Of a stretch of DNA of 41,843 nt, positions 1,630-16,235 are shown one piece after another. The DNA is from a bacterium (lineage in GTDB: Bacteria > Fidelibacterota > Marinisomatia > Marinisomatales > UBA1611), in the NCBI GenBank assembly GCA_018645565.1, contig JABGWJ010000087.1, forward strand, positions 1 to 41,843, in the 5' to 3' direction. How positions within the stretch are numbered: position 1 is the stretch's first letter; each line of letters starts with the position of its first letter. The position numbers were made by a program, and so were the translations under genes. Below the pieces are notes generated by a model. That model was not told the origin of the DNA, did not search any database, and saw nothing but the letters and a program-made list of their open reading frames with translations.

Positions 1630-3270
1630 TCATTGAATCTGTATAACTTTACCATCGAATGGATAATCAGTTTTGATATTTAATAAATTTAAAATAGTTG
1701 GTGCAATGTCTACAGTTTCAGCTTGAACTTTAATTTCAGTTTTAGATCTACCTTCTTTAGCAAAAAGAAGAGGTACATGCGCATCATAATCATAAGGACT
1801 TCCATGGCTAGTGCCGTATGGATTTCTATATAAGTAACCAGGCTCAATAATAACAAATATATCAGCGCTTTTCTCAACATGAACCATATTTTTTAACCTT
1901 AGGCTAACGTTATCTGTTTTTTTTGAATTTATAATTTCTGTTTTAGAAAAAACAGCTTTTACACCTTCAACCATCCCTAAGTACTTTTTGATAATATTTT
2001 CCAAACCAGAAGCTTCTATGTTATTCTTTTTTAATTTATCATGAAAAAAATAATAATTCGTAAAATCCTTATAAAACAAATTTTCACCGTAATATTCAGA
2101 TATTTCATCATCAATCCAGTCATACGCTTCTCGTAAATTATCCCGGTTAATGCGACCACCAGTTAAGTTTAGTTGTGGCAAGAACTCGGGTAAAGGTAGA
2201 CCGCCGTGGTCAGAAGTCATAACAAACTCTACATGTTCTAACCCAATTCTATTATCGATATGAGAGATTAATTCATTCAATTGAATATCTAATCGAATTA
2301 AATAATCCATTGTTTCTTGCGAAAAAGGGCCATAATTATGAATAACATAGTCCATTGCTGAAAACCCAATAAAGAAGAGGTCTGGGTTGTTATCAAAACC
2401 AAGGTTTTCTCTATCAAGAATTAATTTAGATAGGTCCACTAGCTTATCATCAAACCAAGGTGTATTTAGAATTTCAGCACCAGGTTTTTTATCCTGATCA
2501 AAAGATATAGGGAAAACGGGCTTATAATTATTTGTTTTAATTTTTGTTTTGGTAATTGAATCATGATCCATATGATAAGAATCTACCTCGCCAGTAAAAT
2601 TATCTAATCGTGAATGCTTTAAGTAAAGACTATCAGGTAAAATTTTTGTCCATAATGAGTCTCTGTAAGTTTCAAACCTAAGCCTATTATTGAAATCATT
2701 TATATAGTTTGGTAATGTGTCATTATAATAATCAGACGTTATAAACCTATCAATATTATTATAATAAAGAACCAAATCAGCGTTTTGACCTCCCATCATT
2801 ACAGCAGATCTATCTTTTCCAGCAATGGAAATGACTTTTGATTTTGGATTATTGCTTTTGAGGACATCACCAATCATTTTATTATTATATCTAGTAAATG
2901 AACGAGCAAGGCCATCGCCTCCAACTGTTTTTGCTTTAACATCCTCGACGCAATTAACAACCTTCCCCAGAGCCCTATCATAATAACTGTTACCAAGGAC
3001 TCCTGCAGGCCCAGGATGTTTGCCACTTGCAATTGCAAAATGACCTGGCCCCGTTGCTGTATACCCATGCTGATGAAAAGTATTCTGGAAAGAGATACTA
3101 TTTTCAACTAGCCATTTAAAACCACCGCTGTACAAGTTTTTAAACCTTGAAAGATGATCCGGCCTCATCTGATCTGTAACTAAAAAGACGACTAACTTTG
3201 TTTTAGGTTTTGATGAGCATGAAATCGAAAAAAAACAAAAAACAAATAAGCAAAATAATTTTGATCTCAA
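1630..3270 (-). CDS. PafA-like alkaline phosphatase / NPP superfamily lipoprotein
   Basis: Lipobox-like SISC, TDQMR, TATGPGH (Thr nucleophile), KDRS, DYVIH, SDHG, SHGSPYDYDAHVP. TTG start overlaps the tyrS TGA. Confidence 0.85.
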   Translation of the reverse strand: MRSKLFCLFVFCFFSISCSSKPKTKLVVFLVTDQMRPDHLSRFKNLYSGGFKWLVENSISFQNTFHQHGYTATGPGHFAIASGKHPGPAGVLGNSYYDRALGKVVNCVEDVKAKTVGGDGLARSFTRYNNKMIGDVLKSNNPKSKVISIAGKDRSAVMMGGQNADLVLYYNNIDRFITSDYYNDTLPNYINDFNNRLRFETYRDSLWTKILPDSLYLKHSRLDNFTGEVDSYHMDHDSITKTKIKTNNYKPVFPISFDQDKKPGAEILNTPWFDDKLVDLSKLILDRENLGFDNNPDLFFIGFSAMDYVIHNYGPFSQETMDYLIRLDIQLNELISHIDNRIGLEHVEFVMTSDHGGLPLPEFLPQLNLTGGRINRDNLREAYDWIDDEISEYYGENLFYKDFTNYYFFHDKLKKNNIEASGLENIIKKYLGMVEGVKAVFSKTEIINSKKTDNVSLRLKNMVHVEKSADIFVIIEPGYLYRNPYGTSHGSPYDYDAHVPLLFAKEGRSKTEIKVQAETVDIAPTILNLLNIKTDYPFDGKVIQIQ

Positions 3271-4475
3271 TTAACCACCCTCAAGAATTTCCGCTTACCA
3301 ACTTTTAAAACAAAAGAATCACCCACTGACACTTTGTATTGAATGTCTTTTATAGCTTCGCCATCAATTTTCACCGCAGATTGCTTTATCATTCTTCGAG
3401 CCTCACTTTTACTTTTCAATAATCCCGAATCTGCTATTATGTTTACAAGAAGGTCCTCTTCCTTTAGTTGATATTCTTGAATTTCATCTGGCATTCCTTT
3501 TGACACTGTCACTTGGTTAAAGTGGTTTTCAGCATCTAATGCTATTTTTTCATCGTAATACAATGAGACAACCTTTCTGGCTAAGTCTCTCTTAAGCTCC
3601 ATTGGATTAACATTACTATTTTTAAGTTTTTGTTCTACAACTTCAATATATTGATTATCAGCATCAGCAGCTAAGGTGAACCACGATAGCATTACATTAT
3701 CTGGAATTGAAAGTGTTTTACCATACATGTCATTTGCAGAATCTGAGATACCAATATCATTACCATATGACTTTGACATCTTTTCGATACCATCTGTGCC
3801 TTCTAGTATCGGCATTGTTAATATACATTGTGGTTTTTGGCCTACATCTTTTTGCAAATTTCTGCCCATGAGTAGATTGAATTTTTGATCTGTACCACCT
3901 ATTTCAATGTCAGAAACTAATTCAACAGAGTCCTGCGCTTGAGCAAGGGGGTATAAGAATTCATGTAGAGATATAGAAACTTCTGAATTATATCTTTTAT
4001 TAAAGTCATCTCTTTCTAACATCCTTGCAACAGTTGTACAGCTAGAAAGTTTAATTACATCAGAAAAGCTCATTTTTCCTAACCATTCAGAATTATAACA
4101 GACTTTAAGCTTATCCATATCCAGAATAGCTTTTGCTTGGTTTAAATAAGTCTTCGCATTTTCCTTAGCCTCCTCTAAAGTCAATTGAGGCCTAGTTTTA
4201 TTTCTTCCAGTTGGGTCACCTATCATAGCAGTAAAATCACCAATGACTAAAACAGCTTTATGACCTAGGTCTTGAAAGTGTCTCAATTTTCTTAACACCA
4301 CACTGTGCCCTATATGAAGGTCTGGCCTACTTGGGTCACAGCCTAGTTTAGCTACCAAAGGCACTCCACTTTTAACGGAATTTTCGATTTTGCTTCGTAA
4401 TTCATTTTCTGGAACGATTTCCTCAGCACCTTTACTAATTAATTTATATTGTTCATCTACAGATAAAATATTCAT
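3267..4475 (-). CDS. tyrS: Tyrosine--tRNA ligase
   Basis: [24 protein letters not shown] and a C-terminal S4 domain ending VGKRKF. Confidence 0.97.
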
Positions 4476-4927
4476 CTATTTCTCTTCATTTCTCTTTGCA
4501 TCACTTTTTCAACATCTCGTCTTTTTTTTGTTTCACGCTTATCAAATAACTTTTTACCTTTAGCTAATCCAATTTCTACTTTTAACCATCCTCTTTTGTT
4601 AAAATAAATCTTTAACGGCACAGCGGTAAGTCCTTTTTCAGCTAATTTTTGATTAATCTTTAAAATTTCATTTTTATGAAGCAATAAACGTCTTTTCCTG
4701 GTCAACTCATGACCTATAAATCCAGTATGACTATATGCACTAATATGCATTCCCCTAAGCCAGGCTTGCCCTTTTTTAATTAATACATAACTTTCCCTTA
4801 AACTAGCTTTACCTTCTCTTAGACTTTTAACTTCACTACCTAGTAGCTCAATTCCCGCTTCAAAGGTCTCCAATATTTGGAATTCATGGTATGCTTTTCT
4901 ATTATTCGAAACCGTGATTTTTTCCAT
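4472..4927 (-). CDS. smpB: SsrA-binding protein
   Basis: [43 protein letters not shown]. Confidence 0.97.
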
Positions 4928-4955
4928 AATATTAGGCTCGAGAAGCTACGTTCCA

Positions 4956-4972
4956 AGCAATAGCTCGTCCAA
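4956..4972 (-). promoter_or_regulatory. Candidate sigma54-type -24/-12 promoter upstream of smpB
   Basis: Minus strand TTGGACGAGCTATTGCT has the GG-N10-GC spacing but lacks the CAC of the TGGCAC consensus. Confidence 0.3.
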
Positions 4973-5084
4973 GTGTATTCATTGAGAGAAAACTGATAAA
5001 AATATTAATGTATATCTTCATGCAAAGGCATATTTAGTTAAACGTAAATTACACAGTCATTTTTAAAAAAAATCAATATAAATA

Positions 5085-6191
5085 ATGAAAATATTAATAG
5101 TTGAACCTTACTATACTGGTTCTCATAAACAATGGGCTGAGGGTTATAAGAAATACAGCAAACACAAAATTAAAATAATATCGATGAAAGGACAGTTTTG
5201 GAAATGGCGAATGCATGGTGGCGCAGTAACCTTAGCTAAATCTTATATCGAAATGAACTGGAGACCAGATGTAATATTTTGTTCTGATATGTTAGACCTT
5301 TCCACTTTTCTATCTTTGACTAGAAGAGAGACAAAGAATATTCCGGTAGCAATTTATTTTCATGAAAATCAAATATCATATCCTTGGTCACCAAACGATC
5401 GAGATGTGATTAACAAAAGAGACAACCATTATGGCTTTATAAATTTTACTTCTGCACTTTCTGCAGATAAAGTATTTTTTAATTCAAGTTTCCATATGAA
5501 TACTTTTCTTGATGACCTATCGCCATTTTTAAGGCATTTTCCTGATCATAATGAATTAGATACAATCAGAATCATTAAAGAAAAATCAAAAGTTTTACCA
5601 GTTGGACTTGAACTATCAAAATTTAATAATGTGAATGTTCAAAAAGATCAATACCCGGTTATACTATGGAATCATCGCTGGGAATATGACAAAAACCCTA
5701 ACCTTTTTTTCGACACGTTAATGAAATTAAAAGATAGTGGGTTATTTTTTAAATTAATAATAATCGGTGAATCATTTGGAAAAATTCCGGAGATATTTGA
5801 AAAAGCTAAAATTGAATTTGAGGAAAATATTTTAGAATGGGGATATTTGAAGACATTTAGCGAATATGCTCATTCACTGCATAGAGCTGATATTCTTCCT
5901 GTTACTTCAAATCAGGAGTTTTTTGGAGTTAGTGTAATGGAAGCAATTTATTGTGGCGTATGGCCTATTTTACCTGATAGACTCAGTTATAAAGAACTTT
6001 TTTCAGATGCAAATTATAAAGATAATTTTTATTCTGATGATTCACTTTTTTATGAAAAAATTAAACTTTCAATTTTAAATATTAAAGACATTAGAAGAGA
6101 ATCAATGAAAAACATTCCTAAAAAATATGATTGGAAAAATATTATAAAAGAGTACGATGAAGCTTTTGATGATTTAGCTAAAAATATTTAG
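5085..6191 (+). CDS. GT-B glycosyltransferase, DUF3524 / GTDC1 (QTMAN)-like
   Basis: EPYYTGSH, WKWRMHG, YFHENQISYP, FNSSFH, WNHRWEYDKNP and the GT4-type EFFGVSVMEA motif. Confidence 0.85.
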   Translation: MKILIVEPYYTGSHKQWAEGYKKYSKHKIKIISMKGQFWKWRMHGGAVTLAKSYIEMNWRPDVIFCSDMLDLSTFLSLTRRETKNIPVAIYFHENQISYPWSPNDRDVINKRDNHYGFINFTSALSADKVFFNSSFHMNTFLDDLSPFLRHFPDHNELDTIRIIKEKSKVLPVGLELSKFNNVNVQKDQYPVILWNHRWEYDKNPNLFFDTLMKLKDSGLFFKLIIIGESFGKIPEIFEKAKIEFEENILEWGYLKTFSEYAHSLHRADILPVTSNQEFFGVSVMEAIYCGVWPILPDRLSYKELFSDANYKDNFYSDDSLFYEKIKLSILNIKDIRRESMKNIPKKYDWKNIIKEYDEAFDDLAKNI

Positions 6192-6216
6192 TAAATAATT
6201 TATATAAACATCAACT

Positions 6217-7674
6217 TTATTTTTCTAACATATCAAGGACTAATCTAATACCAACACCCGTAGCACTGCCTTTAGGATTGATGCTTGAAGGCTTTGCTCC
6301 CCATGCTGTACCAGCAATATCAAAGTGAACCCATGGTATATCTTTTCCAACAAATTCTTTTAAAAATGCTCCAGCAGCTATTGAACCAGCCTGTCCTGCA
6401 GAACCCATATTTTTGACATCAGCAATATCACTCTTTATTTGTTTACAATATTCTGGCCATAAGGGTAATTCCCATACTTTTTCACCTGTAGATTTCGAAG
6501 ATTCTTTGACTTTTCGCATTAATTTTTCATCAGTGCCCATTACCCCAGTTGCAACGTGACCTAGTGTTACCACTACGGCTCCTGTTAAGGTGGCAAAATC
6601 AATAATAAATTCTGGGTCATAGTGTTTAGATGCATATGAGAGACCATCTGCAAGAATCAATCTTCCTTCTGCATCTGTATTTAAAACTTCAATGGTCTTA
6701 CCATTGTAAGCTGTAAGGATATCACCAGGCTTAAAAGCTTTAGCACCAACGAGGTTTTCTGTGGAGGGAATAATTCCGACGACGTTTATTTTCGGTTTTA
6801 AAATAGATAAAGCGTGTAGAACACCTAGAACCACAGTTGAACCGCACATATCATATTTCATTTCATCCATTTTTGAGGCGGGCTTAATTGAGATTCCTCC
6901 AGAATCAAATGTTAATCCTTTTCCTACAAGAACTTTTGGTTTTTCATCACCTCCATTATTGTATTCAACAACAATAAATTTTGGTGGTTCATCTGTTCCT
7001 TGAGCAACGCCTGCTAAACCGCCCATACCCATTTCGGTAAACTCTTCTCTATCAAAAACTTTTAATGTCATTTCATCTATTTTTGAAATTTCTTCAGCTG
7101 CATTTGCAAGATAAGTTGGTGTAGAAATATTCCCCGGATGATTTCCTAAATCTCTCGCAAAGCAAATTGCATTACCGATTGCAACACCTTTATTTAAGCC
7201 TTGATCATTACAACCATTTATGGCGACCTCTTCGACGACGAAAGAATCAATTGAATTTGTTTTATATTCAATAAATTGATAACTACCCAAGACTGCGCCC
7301 TCACCCATTGCTTGGCAGCTATCTAATTCAGAACAAAAACAGTCGACTGTAACAGTTTTTGCTTTTTTTGTAATTGCCGCTCTAATTGCTGAGCCTGTTG
7401 CTAGCCTTACAACTTCTGAAGTTACTTTTTCTTTATCACCCAGCCCTATCAAAGCAAATCTTCTTTTATTATAATAAAAGAAGTTCACCTCACCAATTTT
7501 TCCTTTTACATCCCCAACATCAACACCACTTTTAATAATATTTTTCAAATCTTGAGTAAGGTCACTTCCTCCTGGAGTAAATGATCTATCTTTGTAAACT
7601 CCAATACATATTAAATCGCTTTTAAGTTCCATCAACGGAGTATTTACTGTTTTTACGTTTTGAATGTGAGACAT
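6217..7674 (-). CDS. pepA: Leucyl aminopeptidase (M17)
   Basis: VGKGLTFDSGG, MKYDMCG, NTDAEGRL, ATLTGA, HFDIAG. AAGGA SD upstream. Confidence 0.96.
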   Translation of the reverse strand: MSHIQNVKTVNTPLMELKSDLICIGVYKDRSFTPGGSDLTQDLKNIIKSGVDVGDVKGKIGEVNFFYYNKRRFALIGLGDKEKVTSEVVRLATGSAIRAAITKKAKTVTVDCFCSELDSCQAMGEGAVLGSYQFIEYKTNSIDSFVVEEVAINGCNDQGLNKGVAIGNAICFARDLGNHPGNISTPTYLANAAEEISKIDEMTLKVFDREEFTEMGMGGLAGVAQGTDEPPKFIVVEYNNGGDEKPKVLVGKGLTFDSGGISIKPASKMDEMKYDMCGSTVVLGVLHALSILKPKINVVGIIPSTENLVGAKAFKPGDILTAYNGKTIEVLNTDAEGRLILADGLSYASKHYDPEFIIDFATLTGAVVVTLGHVATGVMGTDEKLMRKVKESSKSTGEKVWELPLWPEYCKQIKSDIADVKNMGSAGQAGSIAAGAFLKEFVGKDIPWVHFDIAGTAWGAKPSSINPKGSATGVGIRLVLDMLEK

Positions 7675-7808
7675 TTGGTTTCCTTTTTATTCTTTTAATG
7701 ACAATTTTAATATCAAAATTACTATTTGTAATTTTCCTATACAAACATACAGTATGCATAAAAAATCTAGCTTATAAAAGGTTACATGATTTTGCTTCCA
7801 TATAAATA

Positions 7809-10800
7809 ATGTCGATAATAAAAATAAAAAAAGAAGAAGTCTCTCCAATCATCTTATTGATGATGATGTTTTTTTGTATTGTAGGATCAAGTATTACGGG
7901 TGCTAGTGCAAGAGACACATTTTTTCTGACACAATTTGACAGATCCTTACTGCCTTTGATGTTTGCATTGGTTGCAGGATTAATGGTAGTGGCAATCTCT
8001 ATTTATAACAAAATAACATCAAATCTTGATTTGGTAAAGACAATTATCTTTTCATCAGTTTTCTTTTGTATAACCCTTTTTATTATAAGATTTAAATTAA
8101 ATGGTTTTGTCATTCCGCTATTTTATGCTTGGACCGATGTAATCATATCTATTACAATTTTTCAATTCTGGTTGCTTGCTAGCGAAATATTCAATCCTCG
8201 CCAAGCCAAACGTCTCTTTAGCGTTATCGGAATTGGAGGATCAGTCGCTGGAATTAGTGCCGGGTACTTAATGAGACCTTTCGTATTACAGTTTGGTGCT
8301 GAAAATTTATTAATACCTACTATTATATTTATTGCTTTAATAGGCGTTTTCGCAGCTTTCCTAAACCCATTCAGGGCAAAAAAAGAAAATGACATTAAAG
8401 AAAAGACAAATAATAAAACCTCTAAAAATGTTTTTGATCCTTATTTAAAATCAATTTTAGTGATGGTATGTGCCGCAGCTATTTGTTCGAGAATAATAGA
8501 GTATCAATTTAAAATTACAGCTGCTACCACTTATTCATCGTCAGCTGAGCTTGCATCTTTTTTTGGCGAATACTATATGTACTTAAATGGAACAACATTA
8601 ATAATGCAACTTTTTCTTACAGGTTTTATTTTACAAAGGTTCGGGATCTTAGGGGGACTAATTATTATGCCTCTCGGACTAGTAGTAGGCTCAATGTCTT
8701 TTTTAGCTCTGGCAAACCTATCGAGTATTTTTATGGCTCGCCTTTTTGATCAGGCTTTTAAATTTTCTATTCAAAGTGCTTCAAATGAAATGTTATGGAC
8801 TACCATACCAAAAAATAAGGCGCGGCGCGCAAAACCAATTATTGATTCATCAATAAAATCTATAGCAGAAGGCATAATTGGTTTAATCATTTATATAATT
8901 ATAGCAAATAGATTTTTAGAAGACACACAAATATATCTACTCAGTTTTCCTGTGATAATCGTAATAATATTATGGCTATTAAATAATTTAAGAATTAAAA
9001 GAAATTATATTTCATCAATTGAACAGGCAATAAATCGTCGTCATCTCAATTTAAAAGATATTCAATTTGATGTAACAGATAGTCATATTATCAGTACAAT
9101 TGATAAGGCTCTTAAATCTGGTGATTTTAATAAGCAATCATTCGCACTAGATTTGGTAAAAAACATGAAATGTGAGATGTGGAGCGAAACTTTAAATAAT
9201 TTATTAGATTCAAAAAATAAAGATTTACAGAAACAAATAATGCTACTTGCTCTAGAAAGGAACAATTGTCTTGATAATAAAATACTGATTAAATTATCTG
9301 AACAAGTTGATGAAGTTGGCGCATTAGCAATTACATTACTTCCTGATATATTCATTCAGAATAATATTAATTTATTTTTGAAAAATATTAACTCTACTGA
9401 TGCACACATTTCAGCAGCCTCATCGGTAGTGATGCTAAAGCAAAATCCTAAGGATTTAAAAGCCAGAAAAAAATTAAATGAATTTCTTGATGTCAAGAAT
9501 GAAAAAACAACTGCTCTAGCGTTAAATTATTTAAGAAACTCAAGCGAACTGCTACCTAAAAACATATTAAATAATTTATTACATCATCCTTCATTAGAAA
9601 TAAGTAAATCGGCACTGAATGTAGCCGGCAATCGTCTTAATAACTTTTATCTTCCAGCAATCATATCAAATTTAGAAAATATAAAATGCACTTTAAAAAC
9701 AAGAAAAATTCTCAAACTTTATAATTATAAAATTGTTATCAGACATCTAGAAGAGCAATTAAGTTTAAACAAAGATAATAAAAATTTAAAAAAAGGGATT
9801 ATGCGCTGTTTAGCAGGTTACGCAGATGATCGAGTAATTCAAATAATTAAAAGACATTTAAAAGTAAATAATATCAATATTTCTATTATTTGCTCAGAAT
9901 CATTATTAAAAATTGCAAAAAACAGATCAAAAACATTTTCTTTTGAGGATTATTTTTTTGATACTATTAAAAATTTTACGCATCAATATTTTAAACTTCA
10001 TTGCTTTCGAATTTCATTAGCGGATAATAAAAGCACATTTTTTATCAAAGATCAGATAGATTATGAAATGAGGAGATACCTATACATAATTTTAAAGGTT
10101 GTTACTCTTAAAATTCCAAACTCTCCAATAGATTCTCATATTAAAAATATTATTGAGAACAATGATAAGGACTTACCATATATACTAGAGTTTCTTGAGA
10201 CTTCATTTAGTAAAAAAACATTAAATCTATTGATGCCAATGATTGATCCAGAAAATAACTATAAAAATGAAAAAATTCAGAATCAACTAAGTAATAATCC
10301 TTTAAATAGTTGGATAAAAAACTGGTCAGAATCTGATAAAAATTGGAAATCAGCAATAAGTATAGATTATTGTCTAAAACATGATAAAGAAATAATTAAT
10401 AACATTGATTGGTCTAAGGTTGTATCCAACCCTATTCTTTCGCAGGTTTTAGAAAACTGCGATAATAAGGGGACATCTATTCCATTAGAAAAGTTCCAAA
10501 ACAAGACGGAGAAAACTATGTTTACAATTCTAGAAAAAACAATTTTGCTAAAAACTGTAGATCTTTTTCAAGATATACCTGGAGAATTATTGTCACAAGT
10601 TTCACAAATTTCTAAAGCGAAAAACTATGATAATGGTGAGACAATTTTTAGAGACGGAGATGTTGGAGATTCTATGTTCATAGTGCTTGAAGGTAAAATA
10701 TCAATAACTAAGGGCGATAAAGAGATAGCATTACTAGATAAAGGTGCCTCTCTTGGAGAAATGGCACTATTAGACAACGAAAATAGGTCTGCAAATGCAA

Positions 10801-10949
10801 TAGCAAAAGAGGACTCAATACTGCTTAAAATCAATCAAGATGTTTTTTATGAGTTGATGGAGAGTAATGCTGATATAATGAAACAAATCATAAAATTACT
10901 CACCGGAAGAATTAGAACAGCAAATGCTAAACTTGAATTGAACCTTTAA
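7809..10949 (+). CDS. Npt1/TLC-like (NTT) transporter fused to HEAT-like helical repeats and a C-terminal cNMP-binding domain
   Basis: About 12 hydrophobic segments with [24 protein letters not shown] and RAKPIID; a long helical middle; cNMP phosphate-binding cassette [18 protein letters not shown]. Confidence 0.85.
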
Positions 10950-14699: not shown

Positions 14700-16235
14700 T
14701 TACCACCCTTGCATATATGTTGTTATTCCAGAATACAATTTAAAACCTTCAAAAGTATTTTTTGAGTTCAATGTTTTTTTGTATCCAAAAACAATATCAA
14801 AATTAAATGGCCCCATCCGGTTTTTTGATTTAGAATTCAAAATCCATGTTTCTAAACATAAATCCCAGCGCTTATTTTCTGAATCATAACCATCATGGCT
14901 TTCCATCCATTTATCCCAATTACTATCATAAGAAGTGTAATTATCTCTGATCTTTGAAGATGTTAGCGATTGAAATTTTATCAAAATACGATTTTTAACA
15001 ATTTGAGTCTCATATCCTATGAGACTCCGAATTAATCTGCCTTCTTTAAATTTATATGTTTCGCCAACTTTGCTAATAATCGAGTCCGGATTTGTGTGAG
15101 CACCAGAAAATATATTTAATGGAGTATACAATAATTCAGAGGCACTTGATCCATAACTTAAAGAACCATATAAACGACTGCTGGTTTCATTTTTCCAATT
15201 ATAAGCACCAAAAAGCCCAAGCATTAAGCGAGTAACTCCAGAGCCTATATTAATTTGTGAAAATTGTTTTTTACCCACATCACTAAAAGGCTCAATTGTA
15301 AACCCAAATGGGATTGAGACAGATACTCTTCCATAGAGCACTCCAGACTTTTTCCCCATCCATGAAGGGTCTCCTTTTAAAAGAGCCGTTATTCCAAATT
15401 TTACGTCACCTACACCAGATGATGAACGATTTGGCTGATTATAATATTTCGCTAGACTATCAAAAGTTACCGTGTCACCAGTACTATAATTTGGTGTCAT
15501 GAACCTTGGATCTATAAAACCTCGGCTAAAGGGATCATCTTTTGCATGTAATACCCATGCAACGCTGTGCTCTCCATTTATGGTATATAAATCATTATAA
15601 ATATTTTGCAATGTGTCTCTTGTACCAGTTGGCAACATTAAGAATGACGATGTTTGGAAAAAAGAATCGAGCTTTGTTTTTGCGCTTATATGATAATCAA
15701 TAATCTGATCCGCTCCATAAATACGATCAATATTTGATGATACTTTGTAAGTCTCTTTTAATGAACTGATATTAGGGATCTCAACACTTAACATTAATTC
15801 ATTTGAAATACCATAATCTAACTTAATTATACTACCAACTTCTTTTTGCTTTCTATTTTCCGAAAAAACACCATTTGATAAAACTGTTCTGGATGTATCA
15901 AAATAACCTGCATTAAAATCTGGCAGATTTTGTTCATAATTAACATTAAAGATTTTTAAAAATGACTCAGCAGTAACAGACTGGGCCAATTCATAAGACC
16001 CAACGTGAAATAGATCACTTGAACTATTATAAATCCCAAATGTATTTTTCTTTGAATTATTAAAATATGCATGACTAATTCCGTGCATACTAAATTTTTG
16101 ATTACGTAAGCTTAACTCCTGAGAACTATTATAATTTTGAACCGTAACTCGAAAAATGTTCGCTGGAACGGTAGGCAAAACTTGACTTAAACAAAAAGAC
16201 ATAATAAATATTAGGGAAAAGTGCTTCAATATCAA
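14700..16235 (-). CDS. Hypothetical secreted protein, possibly outer membrane
   Basis: 511-aa ORF with a signal-like N-terminus, amphipathic beta-like segments and a C-terminal Trp. TTG start overlaps the TGA of the upstream gene. Confidence 0.7.
   Translation of the reverse strand: MILKHFSLIFIMSFCLSQVLPTVPANIFRVTVQNYNSSQELSLRNQKFSMHGISHAYFNNSKKNTFGIYNSSSDLFHVGSYELAQSVTAESFLKIFNVNYEQNLPDFNAGYFDTSRTVLSNGVFSENRKQKEVGSIIKLDYGISNELMLSVEIPNISSLKETYKVSSNIDRIYGADQIIDYHISAKTKLDSFFQTSSFLMLPTGTRDTLQNIYNDLYTINGEHSVAWVLHAKDDPFSRGFIDPRFMTPNYSTGDTVTFDSLAKYYNQPNRSSSGVGDVKFGITALLKGDPSWMGKKSGVLYGRVSVSIPFGFTIEPFSDVGKKQFSQINIGSGVTRLMLGLFGAYNWKNETSSRLYGSLSYGSSASELLYTPLNIFSGAHTNPDSIISKVGETYKFKEGRLIRSLIGYETQIVKNRILIKFQSLTSSKIRDNYTSYDSNWDKWMESHDGYDSENKRWDLCLETWILNSKSKNRMGPFNFDIVFGYKKTLNSKNTFEGFKLYSGITTYMQGW

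Follow-up and report, generated by a model that had tools for sequence, protein, structure and literature searches.

The stretch of DNA analysed here, contig JABGWJ010000087.1 of assembly GCA_018645565.1 (positions 1 to 41,843 of the forward strand, 41,843 nucleotides; hereafter the window), belongs to a Marinimicrobia metagenome-assembled genome (MAG) of 1.90 Mb in 207 contigs that is 93% complete. At 5085..6191 on the plus strand, divergent from smpB and tyrS, it carries an ATG-started open reading frame (ORF) of 368 amino acids for a glycosyltransferase (GT) of the QTMAN/GTDC1 family, and this gene is an intact, genuine bacterial member of that family in a queuosine-making marine bacterium. 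Residues 2–175 match PF12038, QTMAN_N (formerly DUF3524), over the entire profile (1–168 of 168, E 9.7e-62; the score is 208 bits where the cut-off is 25), and residues 183–310 match PF00534, Glycos_transf_1 (E 8.5e-12, Pfam). A full-length N-terminal QTMAN_N domain followed by a GT1/GT4 C-domain is the architecture of the QTMAN/GTDC1 family, to which a preliminary description of the window had correctly assigned the protein. The three motifs quoted there are also present, WKWRM at residues 39–43, YFHENQ at 91–96 and WNHRWEYDKNP at 195–205. The N-terminal domain (5088..5609, plus strand), putatively the acceptor side, contains S13-H14, W39-K40-W41-R42 and H93-E94-N95-Q96-x2-Y99 in invariant alignment columns. 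The C-terminal GT1/GT4 nucleotide-sugar domain (5631..6014, plus strand) contains W195-N-H-R198-W-E-Y-D202-K203 and the EX7E-type motif E278-x7-E286, with positions read from the translation; R198, D202, K203 and E286 are invariant in the alignments. GT4 enzymes such as PimA bind the donor through an Arg/Lys pair and an EX7E motif.

An AlphaFold2 model, based like the profile comparisons below on an alignment of 24 sequences (A1), has a mean pLDDT of 92.6 and a pTM of 0.90, with two Rossmann-like halves in a GT-B fold. The Foldseek matches listed from the PDB are all retaining GT-B glycosyltransferases of the GT4-like kind at 10–18% identity, the best being glycogen synthase 3l01 (E 3.4e-13), and they include GlgM, MshA, HepE, SdgB, BshA, the pterin glucosyltransferase 9v0l and PimA. 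A QTMAN chain was found in the PDB neither by single-protein or profile sequence search, which return generic GT4 C-domains only, nor among the Foldseek matches listed. In GT-B enzymes the acceptor is usually held by the N-terminal half. Of 150 representative relatives, the 128 with lengths of 340–420 amino acids (~38–52% identity to the query) were compared column by column. Identity averages 0.523 over the N-terminal domain, 0.525 over the C-terminal domain and 0.288 over the tail, and 26 columns reach at least 95% identity, 14 of them in the N-terminal half and 12 in the donor half. Because the N-terminal half is conserved as strongly as the donor half, the family appears to serve a single invariant acceptor across phyla of very different bacteria.

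The nearest named homologues are Candidatus Marinimicrobia proteins with 57–60% identity. A search of 1.84 billion representatives of 50%-identity clusters finds 982 clusters at the strict threshold of E<=1e-30, a number that grows to 1934 when the threshold is relaxed to 1e-10 and to 2952 at 1e-3, and a scan of one genome per species confirmed the PF12038 family in at least 597 species. The best 80 loci of these at least 597 lie in Marinimicrobia, Bacteroidota (many Saprospiraceae), Balneolota, Desulfobacterota (including Geomonas and Geothermobacter isolates), Chloroflexota and KSB1, as well as Acidobacteriota, Krumholzibacteria, one anammox planctomycete and others. Cultured isolates with the gene include Geomonas diazotrophica Red69, Geothermobacter hydrogeniphilus HR-1 and Portibacter marinus.

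The host genome, which has a single PF12038 gene, is predicted to put queuosine (Q) into its tRNA, as judged from tgt (E 3.7e-143), queA (E 3.2e-136) and queG (307.5 bits against a cut-off of 200); queH was not found in it. A genome without tgt is what the preliminary description had named as speaking against its proposal, and this genome is not of that kind. A ManC-like gene (mannose-1-phosphate guanylyltransferase-like, 347 amino acids) scores 319 bits on the GMP part of TIGR01479, for which the cut-off of the bifunctional model is 373. The assembly holds 28 tRNA genes, with tRNA-Tyr GUA and tRNA-Asn GUU among them. GluQRS (YadB), the glutamyl-queuosine tRNA-Asp synthetase that decorates Q34 of tRNA-Asp in E. 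coli, has no match above cut-off in the host genome, the best being a 471-residue GltX-like frame at 252.6 bits against 276.7.

From the 80 loci, 50 PF12038-positive genomes of ~10 phyla were picked for taxonomic spread; 48 of them have TGT (47 with strong matches) and 47 have QueA. The sole genome without either, G060, has QueG (338.6 bits), and since it does, all 50 have at least one gene of the Q pathway. Among the genomes examined, PF12038 occurs only in queuosine-making genomes, and nearly every genome of these phyla is one. PF12038 is absent from all 14 control genomes, including that of E. coli, which has Q. Duplications within the pathway were also seen in this survey. Many PF12038-positive Bacteroidota and Balneolota genomes carry a second, more divergent full-length QueA paralogue (E ~1e-74 to 1e-117; genomes G045, G046, G052, G055, G057–G059, G061–G064, G077 and G081), and two full-length TGT genes per genome occur in the Desulfuromonadales-type genomes G068, G070–G072 and G074 and in all 13 genomes of f30, a family of the Marinimicrobia phylum that lacks PF12038.

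A more distant set of relatives is found in phages. A tblastn search of the window protein against 50,697 phage records gives a single match, a glycosyltransferase of Sinorhizobium phage Phosso (25% identity, E 8e-6), whose gene sits among FolE-like and QueE-like genes. Relatives of the Phosso enzyme occur in 23 phage records. In PA5oct, ACP17 and Xanthomonas X1 phages, the GT gene again lies among QueE-, QueD- and FolE-like genes, and in X1 it is directly upstream of a gene annotated as queuine tRNA-ribosyltransferase. The GT gene thus stands inside a FolE/QueD/QueE/TGT-like 7-deazaguanine cluster in all four phage lineages inspected (records L138–L141: PV764938.1, NC_071039.1, NC_041997.1 and OQ427096.1; large phages). 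With hhalign, alignment A1 aligns to two of the phage GTs through both domains (E 1.7e-11 over 274 columns and 3.1e-9 over 325 columns, probabilities 97.3% and 96.1%), and the controls, the two other GT4s of the host genome, give E 1.8e-5 over 91 columns of the C-domain only and E 0.25. The phage GTs are a distant sister group and not members of the family. The comparison, with two controls only, provides a second, independent line of moderate evidence that this GT lineage may be tied to 7-deazaguanine bases in general, and the gene clusters suggest glycosylated 7-deazaguanine in phage DNA. The likeness to the window protein lies in distant two-domain similarity and a deazaguanine gene context, shared by Phosso, PA5oct-like Pseudomonas phages, Acidovorax phage ACP17 and Xanthomonas X1. 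The phage enzymes differ from it in having only ~25% identity, in not keeping the HENQ motif and in an acceptor that is presumably DNA rather than tRNA.

Animal QTMAN (GTDC1) was reportedly identified as the tRNA-queuosine alpha-mannosyltransferase by Zhao et al. (Cell, 2023). In published work on the enzyme, QTMAN forms manQ34 on tRNA-Asp from GDP-mannose through an alpha link to the allylic hydroxyl, a K296A mutant serves as the inactive control, and QTMAN knock-outs have been examined on boronate (APB) gels with and without periodate. The window protein shares with the animal enzyme a full-length PF12038 domain ahead of a GT1/GT4 domain, a GT-B fold of the retaining type that has an EX7E-like motif and an invariant donor-loop Lys, and a host that makes Q-tRNA. 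It differs in being bacterial and shorter, in belonging to a domain of life where glycosyl-Q is undocumented, and in being known here from its sequence and a model. It is one of the uncharacterised 'DUF3524 domain-containing proteins' of bacteria. We favour, at somewhat better than even confidence, the reading that the enzyme is a Q34-tRNA glycosyltransferase, equivalent in bacteria to animal QTMAN; what we infer for it are its acceptor, its donor sugar and its choice among the four GUN tRNAs. The protein would be a soluble, cytoplasmic, retaining GT-B (GT4-type) glycosyltransferase whose C-terminal domain binds a nucleotide sugar, plausibly GDP-mannose, for which the ManC-like gene is indirect evidence. 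Its QTMAN_N domain would bind the anticodon loop of a tRNA whose position 34 is already queuosine, the product of Tgt, QueA and QueG, and a hexose would then be moved onto a hydroxyl of the cyclopentenediol ring to give glycosyl-queuosine. Such an enzyme would be a second optional decoration of the Q34 cyclopentenediol in bacteria next to GluQRS, which shows that bacteria do hypermodify Q but is unrelated to the GT in fold and chemistry. The proposal of a candidate tRNA glycosylation system made in the preliminary description thus survives as the best reading, by virtue of the family and of tgt, queA and queG in the genome.

Several observations weigh against a Q34-tRNA glycosyltransferase. 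The assignment rests on homology. In the literature manQ is regarded as a vertebrate or mammalian feature, one preprint calling it unique to mammals, and open-access papers and bioRxiv yielded no report of bacterial QTMAN/GTDC1/DUF3524 homologues or of bacterial glycosyl-Q, in agreement with the preliminary description, which knew of no characterised sugar-modified Q in bacteria. The nearest solved folds mostly use small or soluble acceptors (inositol phosphate, malate, pterin, glucans), and the phage GTs show no PF12038 match even at E<=10. The three long forms of the protein, the only ones in a collection of 5.8 billion proteins, contain no tRNA-related domain fusion. tRNA-Asp and tRNA-His are absent from the host assembly among its 28 assembled tRNAs. 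Contigs from RNA libraries, described below and without a DNA-run control, are compatible with transcription of the gene and are no proof of it. Two of the 50 PF12038-positive genomes (G076 and G079, both of unknown completeness) show TGT but no QueA and no QueG above cut-off. The co-occurrence that the preliminary description had asked about holds, and it is nevertheless non-discriminating because queuosine genes are near-universal in these lineages: of 41 relatives 38 have TGT, with or without PF12038, as do 194 of the phylum's 199 genomes. Four of the five phylum genomes without TGT are PF12038-positive, which taken literally speaks against the proposal; as all five have QueA and four have QueG, their tgt has most likely fallen into a gap of the assembly. 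In seven of the 50 PF12038-positive genomes, all Desulfobacterota, GluQRS attains its cut-off, and mutual exclusion of PF12038 and GluQRS, considered as a possible pattern, was accordingly not found. Finally, tgt or que genes adjoin the GT gene in only one of the 80 loci (L068). In that locus, from a Chitinophagaceae MAG, tgt is convergent to the QTMAN-like gene at a distance of ~240 nucleotides (6001–8237); the TGT match of this genome is in two pieces and may be frameshifted. A second such case, in the genome of L037, was suggested by a coincidence of coordinates and proved false on checking.

The scarcity of tgt and que neighbours also bears on the alternative that survives best, although we consider it unlikely, namely that the QTMAN-family enzyme acts on a non-tRNA acceptor of 7-deazaguanine or pterin chemistry, such as free queuine, queuosine, a precursor, or a cyclitol or pterin-like metabolite. 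Such an acceptor would suit the small-molecule GT4s among the closest solved folds (MshA, BshA, 9v0l and GlgM), the phage relatives, whose acceptor within the 7-deazaguanine clusters is presumably not tRNA, and the genomes in which GluQRS and PF12038 stand together. It is harder to square with an N-terminal domain that fits, over its full length, a model named for a tRNA enzyme, or with the thiol-biosynthesis family of BshA/MshA type, whose score the protein does not reach (TIGR03999 BshA, 24.3 bits against a cut-off of 273.7). Nor does a salvage or transport gene recur beside the GT gene. The latter result comes from an unbiased clustering of up to three neighbouring genes per side in 73 loci, seven of the 80 having been left out where the ORF picker did not recover the GT ORF. 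The clustering returns lineage-specific partners only, the commonest being an alpha/beta-hydrolase-like gene in 13 loci, mostly of Saprospiraceae, and no recurring envelope, glycan, sugar-nucleotide, salvage or transport gene.

The position of the gene beside smpB and tyrS could be taken to mean that the GT modifies another component of translation (a protein, tmRNA, or a different nucleoside of tRNA or rRNA), an explanation to which we give very little credence. The 157-bp divergent intergenic region, 4928..5084 between the smpB start and the GT start as the preliminary description had it, has no Rfam family, and its promoter and terminator consensus is not notable, with no signal in 4928–5084 above shuffle expectation. 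Beyond it, on the minus strand, lie smpB (4472..4927; PF01668, E 1.1e-56), the first gene of the divergent operon, which overlaps tyrS by four nucleotides; tyrS (3267..4475; PF00579, E 3.2e-71, with S4 and SYY_C-terminal domains); and a gene of the type I phosphodiesterase/nucleotide pyrophosphatase family (1630..3270; PF01663, E 1.8e-29), which also overlaps tyrS by four nucleotides. With these overlaps, the three genes (1630–4927) look like one translationally coupled operon, and the block is conserved across the order; the phosphodiesterase product has a hydrophobic N-terminus ending in Cys.

In 18 loci of the same order, the GT gene is divergent beside smpB-tyrS in 15, of which 13 have gaps of ~136–940 bp and two have inserts of ~2.5 kb; of the other three, two have no smpB within ~2.5 kb and one is at a contig end. 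A second set of 20 loci shows the arrangement in two of five from the same order and in none of the 15 that come from elsewhere in the phylum (other orders or classes). Within the order, 17 of 23 loci therefore keep the adjacency, at GT identities as low as ~50%, which is what a role in translation could claim in its favour. Across bacteria, it appears in three of the 80 loci, all three Marinimicrobia, and the conservation of the neighbourhood that the preliminary description had asked about does not hold beyond the order. Synteny with smpB-tyrS, considered as functional evidence, is hence ruled out as order-specific. Because the phosphodiesterase gene travels with smpB-tyrS in relatives, the block is a stable stretch of synteny, and the window holds no tmRNA or other Rfam element. 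The adjacency is inherited synteny of one order without a functional message, as the preliminary description had allowed in calling it possibly incidental, and the smpB-tyrS operon lies outside the GT system. It adds nothing to the case for tRNA glycosylation. Nothing singles out tRNA-Tyr as the target. The position does set apart the window copy, which is distinguished from other DUF3524 proteins solely by its order-specific place beside smpB-tyrS.

This region also appears in RNA libraries, in which 17 RNA-recorded rows hold part of 3200–7700; all holders together come from 12 studies. Seawater RNA-library contigs from four runs of four studies cover 5148–6144 without a difference in one run and portions of the ORF in each of the remaining three. 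The contigs end at 4968–5022 on the smpB side and start at 5033–5148 on the GT side, and the gap at ~5023–5032 gives a weak hint of separate transcripts on the two sides.

An ordinary envelope or storage glycosyltransferase, for a glycolipid, an exopolysaccharide or a glucan, is improbable in spite of the generic GT4 C-domain matches, the automatic label 'glycosyltransferase involved in cell wall biosynthesis' of some homologues and the glycogen synthase and lipopolysaccharide (LPS) GTs among the fold matches, given the absence of envelope and sugar genes within 20 kb and from the recurrent neighbours of the 73 related loci, polysaccharide and exopolysaccharide models of NCBIfam that stay far under cut-off (best 31 bits against 550), and an N-terminal domain conserved strongly across phyla, unlike that of enzymes acting on lineage-specific glycans. 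The whole genome has only three PF00534 matches. The preliminary description had likewise remarked on a solitary GT, and among the 14 ORFs of at least 120 amino acids in 1–20.6 kb of the window there is no polysaccharide, LPS, sugar-nucleotide or envelope gene.

Returning to the Q34-tRNA glycosyltransferase, its generalization is more tentative, and we hold it at slightly less than an even chance: many free-living bacteria (Marinimicrobia, Bacteroidota, Balneolota, Desulfuromonadales, Anaerolineae, KSB1 and others) would make glycosylated tRNA queuosine, and the animal enzyme and those of the phage deazaguanine clusters would be branches of one ancient 7-deazaguanine glycosyltransferase lineage. 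Glycosylated queuosines are regarded as an animal speciality, and the modification would then be far older and more widespread. A sugar on queuosine might tune the decoding of NAU and NAC codons. As protection from cleavage is reported for human tRNA-Asp, it might by analogy also guard GUN tRNAs against anticodon nucleases. Glycosyl-Q chemistry could then be tested in cultivable bacteria as well as by expression in E. coli. The family itself is already catalogued by homology, and the window locus adds no context beyond that of other members.

In a FastTree tree of 99 rows, in which all 98 loci were kept, sequences group largely by phylum, with the window protein among the Marinimicrobia rows; phylum labels change 11 times, where 8 is the minimum and shuffling gives a mean of 32.7. 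The position of a few rows hints at transfer or mis-binning. None of 25 pattern matches in viral contigs is a viral member of the family proper. From a tree that follows phyla and the lack of viral copies found, the family seems to behave like a housekeeping-type gene. Within the phylum, PF12038 is present in 68 of 199 genomes at >=90% completeness, with pronounced differences between families: 14/14 in f1, 16/17 in f17 and 20/33 in f9, and 0/16 in f12 (genomes of 0.8–1.1 Mb), 0/15 in f23, 0/19 in f29 and 0/13 in f30. The gene is thus mostly inherited vertically within phyla but dispensable. In one Marinimicrobia genome (G149:C3:17886-18410), the PF12038 match is broken by one TGA and one TAA in frame and is probably a decaying copy.

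The rest of the neighbourhood is varied. The 14 ORFs mentioned above encode a CNNM/CBS protein, the type I phosphodiesterase, TyrS, SmpB, the GT, an M17 aminopeptidase, a TLC/cNMP-binding protein, an acetyl-CoA synthetase, a thioesterase, an MFS transporter, one protein without a Pfam match, NamZ, an SSF symporter and a Na/sulfate symporter. On its far flank, the GT gene is followed by the M17 aminopeptidase gene and then by the TLC/cNMP-binding gene (7809–10949, plus strand), whose product of 1046 amino acids joins a TLC ATP/ADP-transporter-like region (PF03219, E 5.9e-10) to a C-terminal cyclic-nucleotide-binding domain (PF00027, E 9.5e-22). The protein without a Pfam family at E<=1e-5 is encoded by a 511-residue ORF (14700–16235, minus strand) between the MFS transporter and NamZ genes. 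The TLC/cNMP-binding gene stays beside pepA in several relatives.

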